The notes under the pieces were generated by a model, which was not told where the DNA came from, did no database searches, and was given only the letters and a program-made list of their open reading frames with translations. 64,000 nucleotides of DNA from an uncultured Microthrixaceae bacterium. Lineage in GTDB: Bacteria > Actinomycetota > Acidimicrobiia > Acidimicrobiales > DATDAH01. Made by a program: the position numbers and the translations under genes. The stretch spans positions 1,604,636 through 1,668,635 of the forward strand of contig CAWGLV010000001.1 in NCBI GenBank assembly GCA_963823495.1, in the 5' to 3' direction. Positions 58,794 through 63,630 of this stretch are shown one piece after another. Within the stretch, counting starts at the first letter, position 1. Each line of letters starts with the position of its first letter.

Positions 58794-61370
58794 TCAGGAG
58801 GTGCGTCGGGCGAGGAGGCGGAGCATCTCGCGGGCGACCATCGGGCCGGCGTTCTGGTTCTGGCCGGTGACGAGATCGCCGTCGACCACCCAGTGGTTGG
58901 CGAACGGGTCCCGGAAACGGGTGGCCGACTCGAACCGGGCGCCGGCCCGGCGCAGCTCGGTCTCGGGGTGGAACGGCGTCCCTTCGATTCCCAGTTCGTG
59001 GACCTGCTTGTCGGTGACCCCGCTCACCCGGCGGCCCTCGACCAGGGGCCGCCCGTCGGGTGCCGTGGCCCGGCACAGGCCGAGGGGGCCGTGGCAGACC
59101 CCGCCCAGCACGGCCCCGGTGGTCGCCGCCTCGGTGACCTTGTCCGCCAGCACGTCGGAGGTGGCGAAGTCGAACGCTGCTCCCCAACCCCCGGCGAGGA
59201 AGACGATGTCGTAGTCGCTCATGTCGAGCTCGCCGATCGGACAGGAGTCGGTGACCTTGGCCCGCAACACCGCGTCGCCCAGGAAGCGATCGTCCTCCGG
59301 GGAACGGAGCACGGGTTTGAGTGACATCGGGTCGACGGGGATCACGCCGCCGGCCGGGCTGGCCAGGTCGACCTGCAGGCCGGCGTCGAGGAACAGGTAG
59401 TACGGAACGGTCATCTCGGAGGCGAACACCCCGGTTGGCTTGCCCACGTCCAGGACGCCGTGGTTGGTCGCCACCACCAGCGCCCGACGGCCGGGAAGGT
59501 CGAAGGTCGTGGCATCGGGGTCCTCGGGATGCATGCCCAGGCGCCGGAGCGCCCGGCGCAGCAACCGCGCCGGCCGGGGCGGGATCACGGGCTCGACGCG
59601 GGGGTTCGACCGGCGGGCCGCATACGGCCAGGGGGCGTTCCGCTCGGGGACGTCGGTGGCTCGCTGCTCCTCCAGACGGTGCCGGAGGAGGGAGAACACC
59701 TCGGCCGCGTCGGGATCGTCGAACCGGTTGACCGCTTCTCCGGGGTCGCGGTCGAGGTCGTAGAGCTCCCACTGGTCCGGCAGGGGATCGGTCCGGTAGG
59801 TGGGGCCGCCGAGACCTTCCGCCGCCCGGTGCCGGACCTCGGGCTCGGTCCAGGTGGCGGGGTCGTCGAAGGTCCGCACGAGCTTCCAACGGTGGCCGCC
59901 GCCCCCGGTGGCGGCCGTCTCGGCCACGCGACCGACGATCGCCTCGAAGTTGGCGGCGACGTGGGCCGGGACCTGGATGCGCAGGGGTGCGGGTGGATGG
60001 GCCGTGCGGTGGAGTCGCCGGGCCACCCCCGAGGCTCCGCTGTCGCCCTCCAGCATGTTGTCGCGGGTCATCAGGTAGACGGTGCGGTCCGGGTCCGGCG
60101 CCGCGCCGTCGACCACCGGCAACAGGTCGGTGCCCGGGAGGGGGTGGACCTCGCTGAAGTCGGTCGCGAGCTCGACGGCGACCGTCACGGGGTCGAGGCC
60201 GGCGGCAGCCAGCACGGTCGGGACGAGGTCGACGTGGGAGGTCACCTCCTCGACCCGCCCCGCCGTTGTGGGCCGGCTACCGACCCGGGCGACGGTGAAG
60301 GGGACGCGTGTGGCCTCGTCGTACAGGTTGAACCACTTCTGGTGCAGCCCGCCGTGGGCCCCCAGGAGCTCACCGTGGTCGGAGGTCCGCACCAGGACCG
60401 CGTCCCCCGTGGTGCCCTCGGTCACGGCCTGCCGCACCCGGTCGACGGCGCCGTCGACCTCGGCGTGCAGCCGGTGGTACAGGTCCCGGTAGGCCTGGGC
60501 ATTCCGGGAGTAGGCGCGGGCGACGACCGCGGGTGGTCCGTAGCCGGAGGGGTAGGCGGCCCGGTAGGCGATCTGGGCCGCGGGCTTGGCGGCGAGGTCC
60601 TCGTGCTCGGTCGGGGCCTCGGGGACCGGCGGGGGGTCGAGGGGCGAGGGCAGGTCGCCCAACGGCTTGGTCCGCACCCACAGCGGGAAGAGCACGATGT
60701 CGTGGGGGTTGACGAAGCTGGCCACCAGGCAGAACGGCACCAGGGCATCGGCGTCACCGGCCCTTCGTCGGGCGTACCGGTCCTCCAACCAGGCCACGAT
60801 GCGCTCGGCGATGAGGGGGTCACGCACGAGCCCACTGTTGGCCATCGACGGGCCGTGGGGCTCGGGTCCGACCCAACCGGAGAACCCGTAGGGGCCGAGG
60901 GGGTCCGCGTCGAGGTAGGCCCGGACCGCGGCCGGGTCGACGGTGCCGTCATCGCGGTTGGTGACCAGGGCCTTGCCGGTGGCGGGATCGGTGAGGTCGG
61001 CGTGGCTGATGTGCCACTTGCCGTCGTAGTGGGTGTCATAACCCCCGGCCCGCAGCCAGTTGCCCAGCGTGGGCACCTCGCCCGGCGGCAGCCAGCGCAT
61101 CCGGGAGTCGTCGGCCATCTTGCCCAGGCCGTCGGTCTGGGTCACCCCGTGCAGGTCGGGGTACTGGCCGGTGAACAGGGTCGGGCGGCTCGGCACGCAG
61201 GCCAGCGAGCCGGTGTAGTGGCGGGCGAAGGTCACGCCGTTCTCGACGAACCAACGTTCCCCGGCGAGGGTCTCCCGTCGCCAGGCGGCGACGGCGGGAT
61301 CCTCATAGGGCGGGGCGGCCCGCTCTTGGTCGGAGAGGATGATGACGATGTCGGGTCGACGGTCGGTCAT
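58794..61370 (-). CDS. Fusion protein: Cys-type sulfatase domain + DJ-1/PfpI (class I glutamine amidotransferase-like) domain
   Basis: N-terminus IVIILSDQ...ACVPSRPTLFTGQ (CxPxR sulfatase motif), TSDHGE. C-terminal ~260 aa LVVATNHG..., IVFLAGGWGA, GGVCHGP nucleophile elbow. Confidence 0.8.
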   Translation of the reverse strand: MTDRRPDIVIILSDQERAAPPYEDPAVAAWRRETLAGERWFVENGVTFARHYTGSLACVPSRPTLFTGQYPDLHGVTQTDGLGKMADDSRMRWLPPGEVPTLGNWLRAGGYDTHYDGKWHISHADLTDPATGKALVTNRDDGTVDPAAVRAYLDADPLGPYGFSGWVGPEPHGPSMANSGLVRDPLIAERIVAWLEDRYARRRAGDADALVPFCLVASFVNPHDIVLFPLWVRTKPLGDLPSPLDPPPVPEAPTEHEDLAAKPAAQIAYRAAYPSGYGPPAVVARAYSRNAQAYRDLYHRLHAEVDGAVDRVRQAVTEGTTGDAVLVRTSDHGELLGAHGGLHQKWFNLYDEATRVPFTVARVGSRPTTAGRVEEVTSHVDLVPTVLAAAGLDPVTVAVELATDFSEVHPLPGTDLLPVVDGAAPDPDRTVYLMTRDNMLEGDSGASGVARRLHRTAHPPAPLRIQVPAHVAANFEAIVGRVAETAATGGGGHRWKLVRTFDDPATWTEPEVRHRAAEGLGGPTYRTDPLPDQWELYDLDRDPGEAVNRFDDPDAAEVFSLLRHRLEEQRATDVPERNAPWPYAARRSNPRVEPVIPPRPARLLRRALRRLGMHPEDPDATTFDLPGRRALVVATNHGVLDVGKPTGVFASEMTVPYYLFLDAGLQVDLASPAGGVIPVDPMSLKPVLRSPEDDRFLGDAVLRAKVTDSCPIGELDMSDYDIVFLAGGWGAAFDFATSDVLADKVTEAATTGAVLGGVCHGPLGLCRATAPDGRPLVEGRRVSGVTDKQVHELGIEGTPFHPETELRRAGARFESATRFRDPFANHWVVDGDLVTGQNQNAGPMVAREMLRLLARRTS

Positions 61371-61816
61371 GGCCGTCCTTCCCGAAGGTGGCGGGCGAGG
61401 CCGGCGAGCATGCCGTCGGAGGCCATGGCCAGGCGGCGGGCGAGGAGGGGCGCGACCACGCGGCCCGGTGGCTTGGGTCCGGGGTCCACGGTGCTGGTCA
61501 GGGTGACGGCGGTCCGGTCACCGGACGCGAGGAGGGTCCATCGGTTGGTGGCCCCGCCCACGACCGGGGGTAGGCCCTCGAGGGCGTAGGTCAGCGCGCT
61601 CGGCGGGTCCCATTCGGTCACCCGCTCGACGAGGACGGTGCGTCCCGTCTGCACCCGTCGGGCCGTGCCGACGCCGTCGGTCTGGTCGGTCACGTAGCAC
61701 GAGTGCTCGACGTCGTCGGCCCAGGCGCTGAGGCGGTCGAAGGCGGCCAAGGCGCTCCACACCTGGTCCGGCGACGCGGCCACGGTGATCGAGCGCTCCA
61801 CGGCGGCGGCTCCCAT
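61367..61816 (-). CDS. SRPBCC family protein
   Basis: VERSITVAASPDQVWSALAAFDRLSAWAD. 149 aa. ATGA overlap with the downstream sulfatase fusion gene. Confidence 0.7.
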   Translation of the reverse strand: MGAAAVERSITVAASPDQVWSALAAFDRLSAWADDVEHSCYVTDQTDGVGTARRVQTGRTVLVERVTEWDPPSALTYALEGLPPVVGGATNRWTLLASGDRTAVTLTSTVDPGPKPPGRVVAPLLARRLAMASDGMLAGLARHLREGRP

Positions 61817-61872
61817 GACGCATGTCTAGCAGCCGTCCCCAAAGTGGCAGTAGGAGTGTCAGTAGTTGAGGG

Positions 61873-61901
61873 TTGACGTTTCGGCGATCGAGGGCGACAC
61901 T
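61873..61901 (+). promoter_or_regulatory. Candidate promoter of the leuA leader: TTGACG -17 nt- GACACT
   Basis: The -35 is a near-consensus hexamer. The -10 keeps A2 and T6. It ends 7 nt before ATG 61909, the leaderless geometry. Confidence 0.45.
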
Positions 61902-61908
61902 GCCCGGG

Positions 61909-61950
61909 ATGCGTTTCGACCGTCGCGCCCTGGACCTCCTTCTTACGTAA
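61909..61950 (+). CDS. leuA leader peptide MRFDRRALDLLLT (13 aa)
   Basis: 4 of the last 6 sense codons are Leu (CTG, CTC, CTT, CTT). The TAA is immediately followed by a 9-bp hairpin. Confidence 0.55.
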   Translation: MRFDRRALDLLLT

Positions 61951-62021
61951 GGCGAGCACCCCCATATCGGTGCTCGCCTCGCCTCCTGAACCCGGAAGGG
62001 TCAGGGGGCTTTTTCGTTTTC
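61951..62021 (+). promoter_or_regulatory. leuA transcription attenuator (anti-terminator/terminator hairpins + U-tract)
   Basis: GGCGAGCAC/GTGCTCGCC (61951-61978). CCTCCTGA(A)CCC-GGAA-GGGTCAGGGGG (61982-62008), then CTTTTTCGTTTTC. Confidence 0.6.
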
Positions 62022-62076
62022 GAGCCCGGGTCGCACGATCGACTCCATCCCCCCGATCCCCAGAAAGGCCACCTCA

Positions 62077-63630
62077 ATGCAGGACAGCAAGCGAGTCGTC
62101 ATCTTCGACACGACGCTGCGGGACGGCGAGCAGTCGCCGGGCATCTCGCTGGACGTCGGTGAGAAGCTGGAGATCGCGGACCAGCTCGCCCGCCTGGGGG
62201 TCGACTACCTCGAAGCCGGTTTCCCGGTGGCCAGCCAGGGAGACTTCGAGGCCGTCGAGGCCATCGCCAAGGCCGTCCGCGGCCCGGTCGTGACCGGTCT
62301 GTCCCGGACGGCGCTGAAGGACGTGGACCGCTGCTGGGAGGCGGTGCAGCACGCGGAGAAGGCCCGCATCCACGTGTTCATCGCCACCTCCGAGAACCAC
62401 ATGCAGAACAAGCTGAAGATGACCCCGGAGCAGGTCAGGACCGAGGCCGGCTCGGCCGTACGCCACGCCCGGGGCTACACCGACGACGTCGAGTTCTCGC
62501 CCGAGGACGCTTCCCGGTCCGACTTCGAGTTCATGTGCGAGGTGCTGCAGATCGCGGTGGACAACGGGGCCGGGACGCTGAACATCCCCGACACCGTGGG
62601 CTTCTCCATCCCCCAGGAGTTCGGCCGGCGCATCGCCGACATCCGCGAGCGGGTCTCGGGGGACTACGTGATCTCCGCCCACTGCCACGACGACCTGGGT
62701 ATGGCGGTGGCCAACTCGCTGGCTGCGGTCGAGGCCGGCGCCCGCCAGGTCGAGGTCGCGATGAACGGCATCGGGGAGCGGGCGGGCAACGCCGCCCTCG
62801 AGGAGATCGTCATGGCCTTGCGCACCCGGTCGGAGTACTTCGGCGGTCTGGACACCAACGTCCGGGCCGAGGAGCTGGCCCGGACCAGCCGCCTGGTCAG
62901 CCGCCTCACCGGGTACCCCGTCCAGTACAACAAGGCCGTCGTCGGCCGGAACGCCTTCGCCCACGAGGCCGGCATCCACCAGCACGGGATGCTGGAGGAC
63001 CGCACCACCTACGAGATCATGGACCCGAACGCCGTGGGTCAGGACACCTCGCTGGTCCTGGGCAAGCACTCGGGGCGTCACGCCTTCAGCGACGCGCTGG
63101 CCAAGATGGGCCTGACGGTGCAGGGAGATGCCCTGAACCAGGCCTTCACCCGCTTCAAGGAGCTGGCCGACCGCAAGGTGGAGATCACCGACGCCGACCT
63201 GGAGGCCATCGTCGCCGCCGAGCTCAACGTGGCCGCCGGCGATGCCTTCGAGCTGTCCAGCATCGAGTTCCACGGCAGCAACGTCGGTCCGGCCACCGCC
63301 CGGGTGGTCCTCGTGCGCACCGACGGCGGCGAGGAGGTCGAGGCCGCCGGCGAGGGGGACGGGATGATCGACGCCGCGGGCCAGGCGATCCGGGCCGCCA
63401 CCGGGGTCGAGGGCCGGCAGACCGACTTCAACGTGTCCTCGGTGACCGGTGGGGTCGACGCCCTGGGTGACGTGGTCATCCAGTTCGAGTCCGAGGGCAC
63501 GAAGGTGTCCGGCCGAGGCGTGTCCACCGACGTCGTCGAGGCCTCCGCCCGGGCGTTCCTCAACGCCGTCAACAAGGTGATCCGCATCCGCGACCGCGCC
63601 GAGGTCCGGGACATCGAGACCGGGCCGTGA
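62077..63630 (+). CDS. leuA: 2-isopropylmalate synthase
   Basis: VIFDTTLRDGEQSPG, HCHDDLGMAVANS, NGIGERAGNA, C-terminal LeuA dimerisation/regulatory domain. 517 aa. Confidence 0.9.
   Translation: MQDSKRVVIFDTTLRDGEQSPGISLDVGEKLEIADQLARLGVDYLEAGFPVASQGDFEAVEAIAKAVRGPVVTGLSRTALKDVDRCWEAVQHAEKARIHVFIATSENHMQNKLKMTPEQVRTEAGSAVRHARGYTDDVEFSPEDASRSDFEFMCEVLQIAVDNGAGTLNIPDTVGFSIPQEFGRRIADIRERVSGDYVISAHCHDDLGMAVANSLAAVEAGARQVEVAMNGIGERAGNAALEEIVMALRTRSEYFGGLDTNVRAEELARTSRLVSRLTGYPVQYNKAVVGRNAFAHEAGIHQHGMLEDRTTYEIMDPNAVGQDTSLVLGKHSGRHAFSDALAKMGLTVQGDALNQAFTRFKELADRKVEITDADLEAIVAAELNVAAGDAFELSSIEFHGSNVGPATARVVLVRTDGGEEVEAAGEGDGMIDAAGQAIRAATGVEGRQTDFNVSSVTGGVDALGDVVIQFESEGTKVSGRGVSTDVVEASARAFLNAVNKVIRIRDRAEVRDIETGP

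Follow-up and report, generated by a model that had tools for sequence, protein, structure and literature searches.

The window, the whole stretch of DNA analysed here, covers 64,000 nucleotides (nt) of contig CAWGLV010000001.1 from an uncultured Microthrixaceae bacterium of the class Acidimicrobiia, and it contains leuA, the gene for 2-isopropylmalate synthase, behind an intergenic leader region of 260 nt (61817–62076). From a promoter onwards, this gap holds a short open reading frame (ORF) that ends in a run of leucine codons, a first hairpin (hairpin 1) that abuts the stop codon of the ORF, and an intrinsic terminator with a U tract. The same layout precedes leuA in 22 other Acidimicrobiia contigs, giving 23 copies with the window, and comparison of these copies makes it probable that the element is a leucine-sensing leader-peptide attenuator through which a translating ribosome regulates transcription of leuA. 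The element and its presumed target consist of the following features.

61873–61878, plus strand: −35 promoter hexamer TTGACG (from the sequence; TTGAC in orthologues).
61896–61901, plus strand: −10 promoter hexamer GACACT, of the NANNNT type (from the sequence and the spacing in orthologues).
61909–61950, plus strand: leader ORF encoding MRFDRRALDLLLT, 13 codons and a TAA stop (from the sequence and orthologous ORFs).
61927–62020, plus strand: match to covariance model R1, which runs from the Leu run through the U tract (75.8 bits, E = 3e-16).
61936–61944, plus strand: putative sensor codons CTC CTT CTT, Leu-Leu-Leu (from codon statistics).
61950–61979, plus strand: hairpin 1, the putative sensor of ribosome position, with arms 61950–61960 and 61969–61979 and loop CCCAUAUC (RNAfold, covariation).
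61981–62009, plus strand: terminator hairpin of 12 base pairs (bp) with a bulged A61990, one U-G pair and a GGAA loop (RNAfold, covariation).
62010–62021, plus strand: U tract TTTTTCGTTTTC (from the sequence; every copy has a T-rich tract after the stem).
62063–62068, plus strand: leuA Shine-Dalgarno sequence GAAAGG, 8 nt ahead of the ATG (from the sequence; GAAAGG(A) stands before leuA in many orthologues).
62077–63630, plus strand: leuA, 2-isopropylmalate synthase of the bacterial short type (517 amino acids), the presumed regulated gene (NCBIfam profiles).

The leuA product scores 699.5 bits against NF002086 (cut-off 532) and 644.9 bits against TIGR00973 (cut-off 598.7). A first-pass annotation of this DNA, made from the letters alone, had proposed the promoter with its 17-nt and 7-nt spacers, the ATG at 61909, the Leu-rich ORF of 13 codons and a U tract 55 nt before the leuA ATG, and all of these lie where it placed them. 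It had also put hairpins of 9 and 11 bp behind the ORF; the hairpins are there, with stems that are in fact 10–11 and 12 bp long.

The 23 copies comprise 19 that were used for model building (the window and 18 contigs) and four held-out loci, whose contigs were obtained through their LeuA proteins as an independent test. In the window the leader ORF reads ATG CGT TTC GAC CGT CGC GCC CTG GAC CTC CTT CTT ACG TAA (stop codon 61948–61950), with Leu at four of the last six sense codons. The ending Leu-Leu-Leu-X-stop is kept in all 23 copies, X being Thr in 16 of 19, while the orthologous ORFs range from 11 to 20 codons in length (11–16 in the 18 model-building contigs) and are variable in their N-terminal part. 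The Leu codons themselves vary synonymously among copies, and one relative (L162) encodes the window's peptide with a synonymous change; the peptides of the four held-out loci are MRFDLRALELLLT, MRFDRRALDLLLT, MRTAHTTGRPVRQTLELLLR and (V)RRTLIVAGLLLT. An end that is fixed in amino acids and synonymous in codons suggests that the ORF behaves as a translated sensor. CTT accounts for 46% of the Leu codons in the leader run, against 1.6% in three genes of the window and 1.8% in leuA orthologues, and it occupies the last position of the run in 18 of the 19 model-building copies. Two other candidate ORF starts were discarded: a GTG at 61970 in the 3′ arm of hairpin 1 is missing in L006, L008 and L003, and an in-frame TTG at 61873 falls on the −35 hexamer and lacks conservation.

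Both hairpins are supported by folding and by covariation. Hairpin 1 has the core GGCGAGCAC(C)/(G)GTGCTCGCC (61951–61960/61969–61978), to which RNAfold adds the pair A61950–U61979 to give 11 bp, so that in the window it begins at the last base of the leader stop codon; a single nt separates it from the terminator, whose arms are 61981–61993 and 61998–62009. A 122-nt RNA folds into exactly these two hairpins (−57.5 kcal/mol, z = −4.2), and 0 of 200 shuffled sequences were as stable. Across the 23 sequences, 97.7% of the cells in the two helices are standard pairs and six pairs have changed on both sides, a covariation score reached in none of 500 shuffles; slid controls pair only 40–54%. Hairpin 1 by itself is paired in 99% of cells, with both-side changes in four of nine pairs. 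In the terminator, two pairs alternate from U-A to C-G, and pairing of its arms is worth about −20 kcal/mol, as compared with −11.9 for shuffled arms. The lower stem of hairpin 1, GCGAGC/GCUCGC, is near-invariant in the 19 model-building copies, with changes of the G-U type only. In L161, the closest relative fetched, which shares the window's neighbourhood (a sulfatase/DJ-1 fusion, an SRPBCC gene, leuA), the lower stem carries two compensatory double changes from G-C to A-U, indicating that structure rather than sequence is maintained there. The alignment of the relatives' leuA upstream regions, which the first-pass annotation had suggested as a check, thus bears out the conservation of the Leu run and of both stems, the latter with compensatory changes.

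The geometry of the element is equally constrained. In all copies hairpin 1 starts 0–2 nt past the leader stop codon and is separated from the terminator by a spacer of 0–6 nt, and its distance of 6–8 nt from the last Leu codon is conserved as well. The hairpin 1 loop varies from about 3 to 15 nt. The terminator of the relatives has the form CCUCCUG-N-GCC ... GGC-CAGGAGG, in which the bulged N of the 5′ arm (61990 in the window) holds its position in most copies and varies in identity; we found no pairing that explains this bulge. In two relatives, L084 and L085, a further sequence resembling hairpin 1 (GCGAGGGUGCUCGCC) stands between GCGAG repeats about 110–140 nt downstream of the terminator, and their gap between terminator and leuA is unusually long (182 nt). 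B-like repeats past the U tract (CGAGC at 62021–62025 in the window, GGGCGAGUACC in L001) were set aside as not conserved and transcribed too late to matter.

The model R1 recovers this family with high specificity. Each model-building locus gives a single match, always upstream of leuA and scoring 67–90 bits, and all four held-out loci were found at 60.7–83.7 bits, while no other significant match occurs in the window or in about 70 leuA loci from outside the Acidimicrobiia. The family is confined to the class Acidimicrobiia in the data examined. The nearest leuA relatives in species-representative genomes are metagenome-assembled genomes (MAGs) labelled Acidimicrobiia or Acidimicrobiales, with 67–75% protein identity, and LeuA identity rises to 79% in metagenome contigs and 90–91% in metagenome proteins, among them that of L161. 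In one low-GC Acidimicrobiales MAG (LS4_metabat2.269, locus L009), about 45 nt separate leuA from the end of a serA-like gene upstream, and leader ORF, hairpins and terminator are all absent; the element is thus not universal in the order. A search of the region against Rfam 15 at E ≤ 10 returned nothing but terminator-like matches at chance level, of which Atu_C7 scored highest (19.7 bits; gathering score 45), a gathering-score scan of the whole window found no leader family, and our literature search found no attenuator report for Acidimicrobiia.

Comparison of the promoter regions bears on where transcription begins. TTGAC stands at the same place, 17–18 nt before the −10 hexamer, in 18 of the 23 orthologous regions when read by eye, and orthologues have a NANNAT or NANNNT −10 hexamer at the same spacing, that of L162 being the identical GACACT. 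The window's GACACT matches three of the six positions of TATAAT, a consensus taken from E. coli. A consensus scan of the region with E. coli hexamer rules called neither promoter nor terminator, which we judge to be a limit of the scanner, its terminator rule presumably being defeated by the bulge in the stem. In all 23 copies an ATG or GTG start codon lies 6–10 nt past the −10 hexamer, which leaves no space for a Shine-Dalgarno sequence. Hence the ORF is probably translated from a leaderless transcript, or from one with a leader of at most about 3 nt. Transcription starts 5–7 nt past the −10 hexamer in 89% of Streptomyces lividans promoters (PMC8079986), a rule that, with the 7-nt spacing of the window, would put the transcription start on or beside the A of ATG 61909, while the 9–10 nt spacing of most relatives implies a leader of 2–3 nt. 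The leaderless transcript of the first-pass annotation therefore agrees with the promoter geometry of the window, and needs this small adjustment for the spacing in most relatives.

For the element to regulate leuA, the gene must be reached by read-through. In six relatives (L003, L004, L033, L083, L010 and L002) the gap between the U tract and the leuA ATG is only 31–49 nt, leaving no space for a separate leuA promoter, and in these relatives leuA must then be transcribed through the terminator. The gap of 55 nt in the window, unlike these shorter ones, is compatible with a promoter of its own for leuA. What lies upstream differs between copies (serA, SRPBCC, membrane protein), yet the element is linked to leuA in every one of the 23.

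These features suggest the following sequence of events. Transcription would start at ATG 61909 or within about 3 nt of it, as the conserved promoter geometry indicates, and a ribosome would enter the 13-codon ORF while RNA polymerase is making hairpin 1 and the terminator. The CTC-CTT-CTT run, with its rare CTT codon, would serve as the sensor. When Leu-tRNA is plentiful, the ribosome would reach the stop codon and take the 5′ arm of hairpin 1 inside it; hairpin 1 would melt there because this arm begins 0–2 nt past the stop codon, and the terminator would act, leaving a transcript about 110 nt long. Under a shortage of Leu-tRNA, the ribosome would wait on the Leu codons with hairpin 1 folded at its mRNA entrance, and more transcripts would read through into leuA. 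From this we infer the sign of regulation: a folded hairpin 1 would go with read-through and a melted one with termination.

We analysed the effect of ribosome position by partition-function folding of the 19 model-building copies under a ribosome mask, with the A site at Leu1, Leu2, Leu3, X or the stop codon and the first pairable base at A site + 11. The probability of hairpin 1 falls, in virtually every one of the 19 copies, from 1.0 (Leu1 and Leu2) through 0.8 (Leu3) and 0.5 (X) to about 0 (stop), whereas that of the terminator is about 0.8–0.99 in nearly all masked states. Since only hairpin 1 changes with the position of the ribosome, it can be regarded as a reporter of that position. 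Masked folding, a check suggested in the first-pass annotation, thus shows a switch in hairpin 1 but leaves the terminator formed.

Can the two hairpins nevertheless be joined by an antiterminator helix, as in a classical attenuator of the trp or leu type? In such an arrangement, which was that of the first-pass annotation, the stalled ribosome would allow a helix that excludes the terminator. Two candidates were at hand. The 5′ arm of hairpin 1 might slip onto the second CTCGCC (GGCGAG on 61978–61983), and in the window AGGCGAG can indeed pair with CUCGCCU (61978–61984) over 7 bp, taking the four bottom pairs of the terminator; alternatively, the Leu run, whose CCUCCUU resembles the CCUCCUG of the terminator 5′ arm, might pair with the G-rich terminator 3′ arm. 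An overlap of 3 nt suffices for switching in Corynebacterium glutamicum ilvBNC (PMC11857589). We therefore calculated RNAduplex energies over all segment pairs of the 19 copies (Leu run, N-terminal ORF, arms and loops), followed by shuffled controls. Only two pairings proved specific: hairpin 1 (mean −19.1 kcal/mol) and the terminator (−20.2 kcal/mol) fell below the 5th percentile of shuffles at 19 and 18 of the 19 loci, and every alternative was weak. As a general mechanism the CTCGCC/TCGCC slip fails: between the 5′ arm of hairpin 1 and the terminator base the mean energy is −6.0 kcal/mol against −6.5 for shuffled sequences (0/19 loci significant), and inspection by eye shows no UCGCC repeat in L081, L007, L008, L001, L033 and others. 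The Leu run with the terminator 3′ arm gives −12.5 kcal/mol and passes the 5th percentile at three of the 19 loci, yet this is barely above composition (−11.0 shuffled) and the N-terminal ORF does nearly as well (−10.0). Moreover, a stalled ribosome covers the run, which would give regulation the wrong sign. Together with the high probability of the terminator in all masked states, these results make a classical attenuator unlikely, and what stands of the 'complete attenuator' described at first pass is the ORF, the hairpins and the terminator, without a helix that competes with the terminator.

The remaining pairings point the same way. The 3′ arms of hairpin 1 and the terminator pair more weakly than chance (−6.3 against −8.6 kcal/mol shuffled), as if the two hairpins had been selected for independence, and the hairpin 1 loop with the terminator 3′ arm is at chance level (−3.9 against −4.2 kcal/mol shuffled; nested structures were modelled). 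Between the arms of hairpin 1 and the ribosome-binding site (RBS) of leuA, pairing was calculated without a shuffled control and shows a pattern only in one subgroup with GAGCGAG-rich RBS regions. In these models, hairpin 1 and the terminator appear to be linked by no competition between RNA strands.

How, then, might hairpin 1 influence the terminator in a leucine-sensing attenuator of this kind? We tentatively suggest a steric or kinetic coupling. A terminator stem has to close its lowest pairs far inside the exit channel of RNA polymerase, and a folded hairpin 1, docked on the stalled ribosome 0–6 nt from the terminator, could hinder that closure, while a terminating ribosome would unwind hairpin 1 into a flexible strand of about 20 nt and so let the terminator close. 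Hairpin 1 may also act as a pause hairpin that synchronises ribosome and polymerase; a conserved CCU^G follows it by 9–11 nt. A more specific version, which we hold with slightly less conviction, is an attenuator that dispenses with any antiterminator helix: the 30 nt from the stop codon to the terminator would be taken up by the folding of hairpin 1, so that a ribosome stalled at CUU, effectively 0–6 nt from the terminator 5′ arm and with hairpin 1 at a frameshift-like spacing, could block closure sterically. The independence of the two hairpins, the two tightly conserved spacings and the response of hairpin 1 alone to the ribosome allow for this version. Frameshift-stimulating structures share the spacing of 6–8 nt seen between the last Leu codon and hairpin 1. 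In E. coli pyrBI and pyrE the closeness of the ribosome controls the terminator without an antiterminator helix, the ORF there running into the terminator; in the Acidimicrobiia element, by contrast, the leader stop codon lies 30 nt upstream of the terminator, and control by closeness would, hypothetically, need the folding of hairpin 1.

Several points weigh against a leucine-sensing attenuator, or against the coupling suggested for it. The case for every member of the family is made from sequence and computation, and all comparators are MAGs or metagenome contigs. The −10 hexamer of the window is weak, and in 16 of 23 copies, read by eye, the start codon lies 9–10 nt past the −10, which suggests a leader of 2–3 nt and not a strictly leaderless transcript. 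A classical antiterminator helix was not found in the 19 copies by RNAduplex, shuffled controls or masked folding. Equilibrium folding has the terminator formed wherever the ribosome stands, and this model by itself would therefore predict no regulation. We know of no citable precedent for steric coupling, and classical attenuators have stable hairpins near their terminators that do not prevent termination. Finally, mutations in the leuA leader of Streptomyces coelicolor did not fit classical attenuation, as cited in PMC1262725.

Hairpin 1 could instead act through a factor, either as a binding site for a protein or RNA polymerase (put-like or processive antitermination) or as a DNA palindrome bound by a repressor, with the leader peptide secondary or irrelevant. 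The nearly invariant lower stem in the model-building copies and the second hairpin-1-like copy downstream in L084 would fit such a role. However, the compensatory changes in L161 keep the structure and not the sequence, the variable loop length is ill-suited to a dimeric DNA operator, and such a role would not account for the fixed distances from hairpin 1 to the stop codon and to the Leu run; we consider action through a factor quite improbable. Still less probable is that there is no regulator at all, the element being a separate small gene or short RNA that ends in a terminator of its own, and leuA having its own promoter. A NANNAT-like CACGAT (62034–62039) does lie between terminator and leuA in the window, but no −35 precedes it, the short gaps of several relatives exclude a promoter there, the linkage to leuA is retained in every copy despite differing upstream neighbours, and the peptide lacks conservation in its N-terminal part. 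Least probable of all is a translational switch like the LEU element of other Actinobacteria, in which, on paper, the leuA RBS is paired to the Leu run until a stalled ribosome frees it (PMC1262725), the terminator being in that case constitutive and leaky: the CCUCCUU of the Leu run resembles an anti-Shine-Dalgarno sequence, and the Leu run pairs with the RBS in Solirubrobacterales (below), but in the 19 Acidimicrobiia copies this pairing is at chance (−8.9 against −8.9 kcal/mol shuffled) and the distance from Leu run to RBS varies from about 130 to 280 nt.

A leucine-sensing attenuator before leuA has clear relatives among known systems. Enterics are an established case of Leu-run leader peptides before leuA, and the leader of the E. 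coli leu operon uses rare CUA codons in an ORF of 28 codons where the Acidimicrobiia element uses rare CUU, in an ORF of 13 codons in the window. Like the enterobacterial leu leader (RF00512), the element has consecutive Leu codons and an intrinsic terminator before leuA; unlike that leader and those of the trp/his/thr type, it has no Rfam match at E ≤ 10 to such a family, no protector/preemptor alternative and no Shine-Dalgarno sequence.

Closer parallels are found among Actinobacteria. RNA sequencing in S. lividans identified leaderless leuL peptides before leuA and leuS, namely leuL1 (MRFGLLLLSCRGEGL, then stop) before leuA and leuL2 (MRAVRLLLSEPR, then stop) before leuS; behind leuL2 come a hairpin and a U stretch (PMC8079986). 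A four-Leu leader, cgb_03035, precedes leuA in C. glutamicum (PMC4046766). As in these leaders, a short, probably leaderless ORF with a run of three to five Leu codons stands in Acidimicrobiia directly before a leucine-related gene. The leuA leaders of Streptomyces and relatives are reported to be without a typical intrinsic terminator (PMC8079986), whereas the Acidimicrobiia element has a canonical one. Streptomyces-type leaders have 4–7 codons after the Leu run, in contrast to one codon here. They also precede a long, yeast-type LeuA (TIGR00970 family), while LeuA of the Acidimicrobiia is of the short bacterial type.

The LEU element (Seliverstov et al. 2005) joins an upstream Leu-run ORF to a conserved RNA structure before actinobacterial leuA, as the present element does, and the authors who named it noted that classical attenuator components are often missing (PMC1262725). 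Its architecture differs, being a pseudoknot without a U-tract terminator where the Acidimicrobiia have two independent hairpins and a U-tract terminator, and its base stem, formed by the Leu run and the leuA Shine-Dalgarno sequence, is the pairing found at chance level above. In the C. glutamicum ilvBNC leader, the start codon is 1 nt from the transcription start, antiterminator and terminator are adjacent and overlap only by GCC, and an upstream hairpin has a proposed role in pausing (PMC11857589). The ilvBNC hairpins thus share GCC, whereas the Acidimicrobiia hairpins, although adjacent (0–6 nt), share no nucleotide and have no conserved alternative register. The device is therefore of the same kind as known actinobacterial leaders and differs from them in five respects: the short-type LeuA, the canonical terminator, the single codon between Leu run and stop, hairpin 1 abutting the stop codon, and the lack of any overlap or alternative pairing. 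To the question, raised at first pass, of whether such control is described for this lineage, the literature answers with leaderless Leu leaders before leuA in Streptomyces and Corynebacterium (PMC8079986, PMC4046766, PMC1262725); we found none described for Acidimicrobiia.

Other leuA leaders came to light in the same data set. In Solirubrobacterales (Thermoleophilia; L011–L027, L032, L089 and L091–L093), a different conserved leader, ...LLLLLPPRGE-stop, lies about 130–230 nt before the start of the match, its tail encoded by an in-ORF hairpin, CCCCCC-UC-GGGGGG, with no U-tract terminator after it. The leuA RBS GGAGAAGGAG complements the Leu run CUUCUCCUUCUCCUC of this leader (−17.5 against −13.1 kcal/mol shuffled), 7 of the 17 loci falling under the 5th percentile, and from its sequence the leader looks like a translational switch of the LEU-element type. 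Seven alphaproteobacterial loci with short-type leuA (L056, L061–L065 and L071) have a leader ...LLLLSRP-stop or ...LLLLISP-stop, followed by GGGCCGGC... The leuA leader of Deinococcus phoenicis (L057; MHPMQAFGGLLLSLPPVE, then stop) has by eye a classical overlap between CCUCCGG of the ORF and CCGGAGG of the terminator 5′ arm, so that Leu leaders with classical overlap do occur in the same data set. A Pirellulales MAG (L055) has a leader (MPTNSLSLLLLTLPLGA, then stop) and a terminator before a short-type leuA.

Upstream of the element in the window lies a divergently transcribed SRPBCC-family gene (61367–61816, minus strand), whose counterpart in L161 is an SRPBCC/polyketide-cyclase-like protein. 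It overlaps by 4 nt a coding sequence for 858 amino acids (58794–61370, minus strand). Precomputed Pfam matches give the counterpart of this ORF in L161 (845 amino acids) a sulfatase domain and a C-terminal DJ-1/PfpI domain, an unusual fusion. The sole Rfam match above its gathering score in the window, the Mycobacterium small RNA Ms_AS-5 (61155–61199, plus strand; 61.7 bits, cut-off 46), lies antisense within the 858-amino-acid coding sequence and may be conserved coding sequence rather than a small RNA gene.

The existence of the element will not surprise specialists; its interest lies in the missing antiterminator and the rigid geometry. The findings would extend leader-peptide attenuation, with translation of a probably leaderless leader, to Acidimicrobiia, a deep and mostly uncultured class of Actinobacteria, in which R1 provides a specific handle for annotation, with one match per genome, upstream of leuA. 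Neighbouring classes appear to have arrived at differing solutions, a terminator in Acidimicrobiia and pairing of the Leu run with the RBS in Solirubrobacterales. A strict geometry without a detectable antiterminator would make the Acidimicrobiia element a clean natural test of a question that has stood since 2005 over actinobacterial leaders, whose classical components are apparently missing (PMC1262725): whether the position of a ribosome can control an intrinsic terminator by means beyond strand competition.

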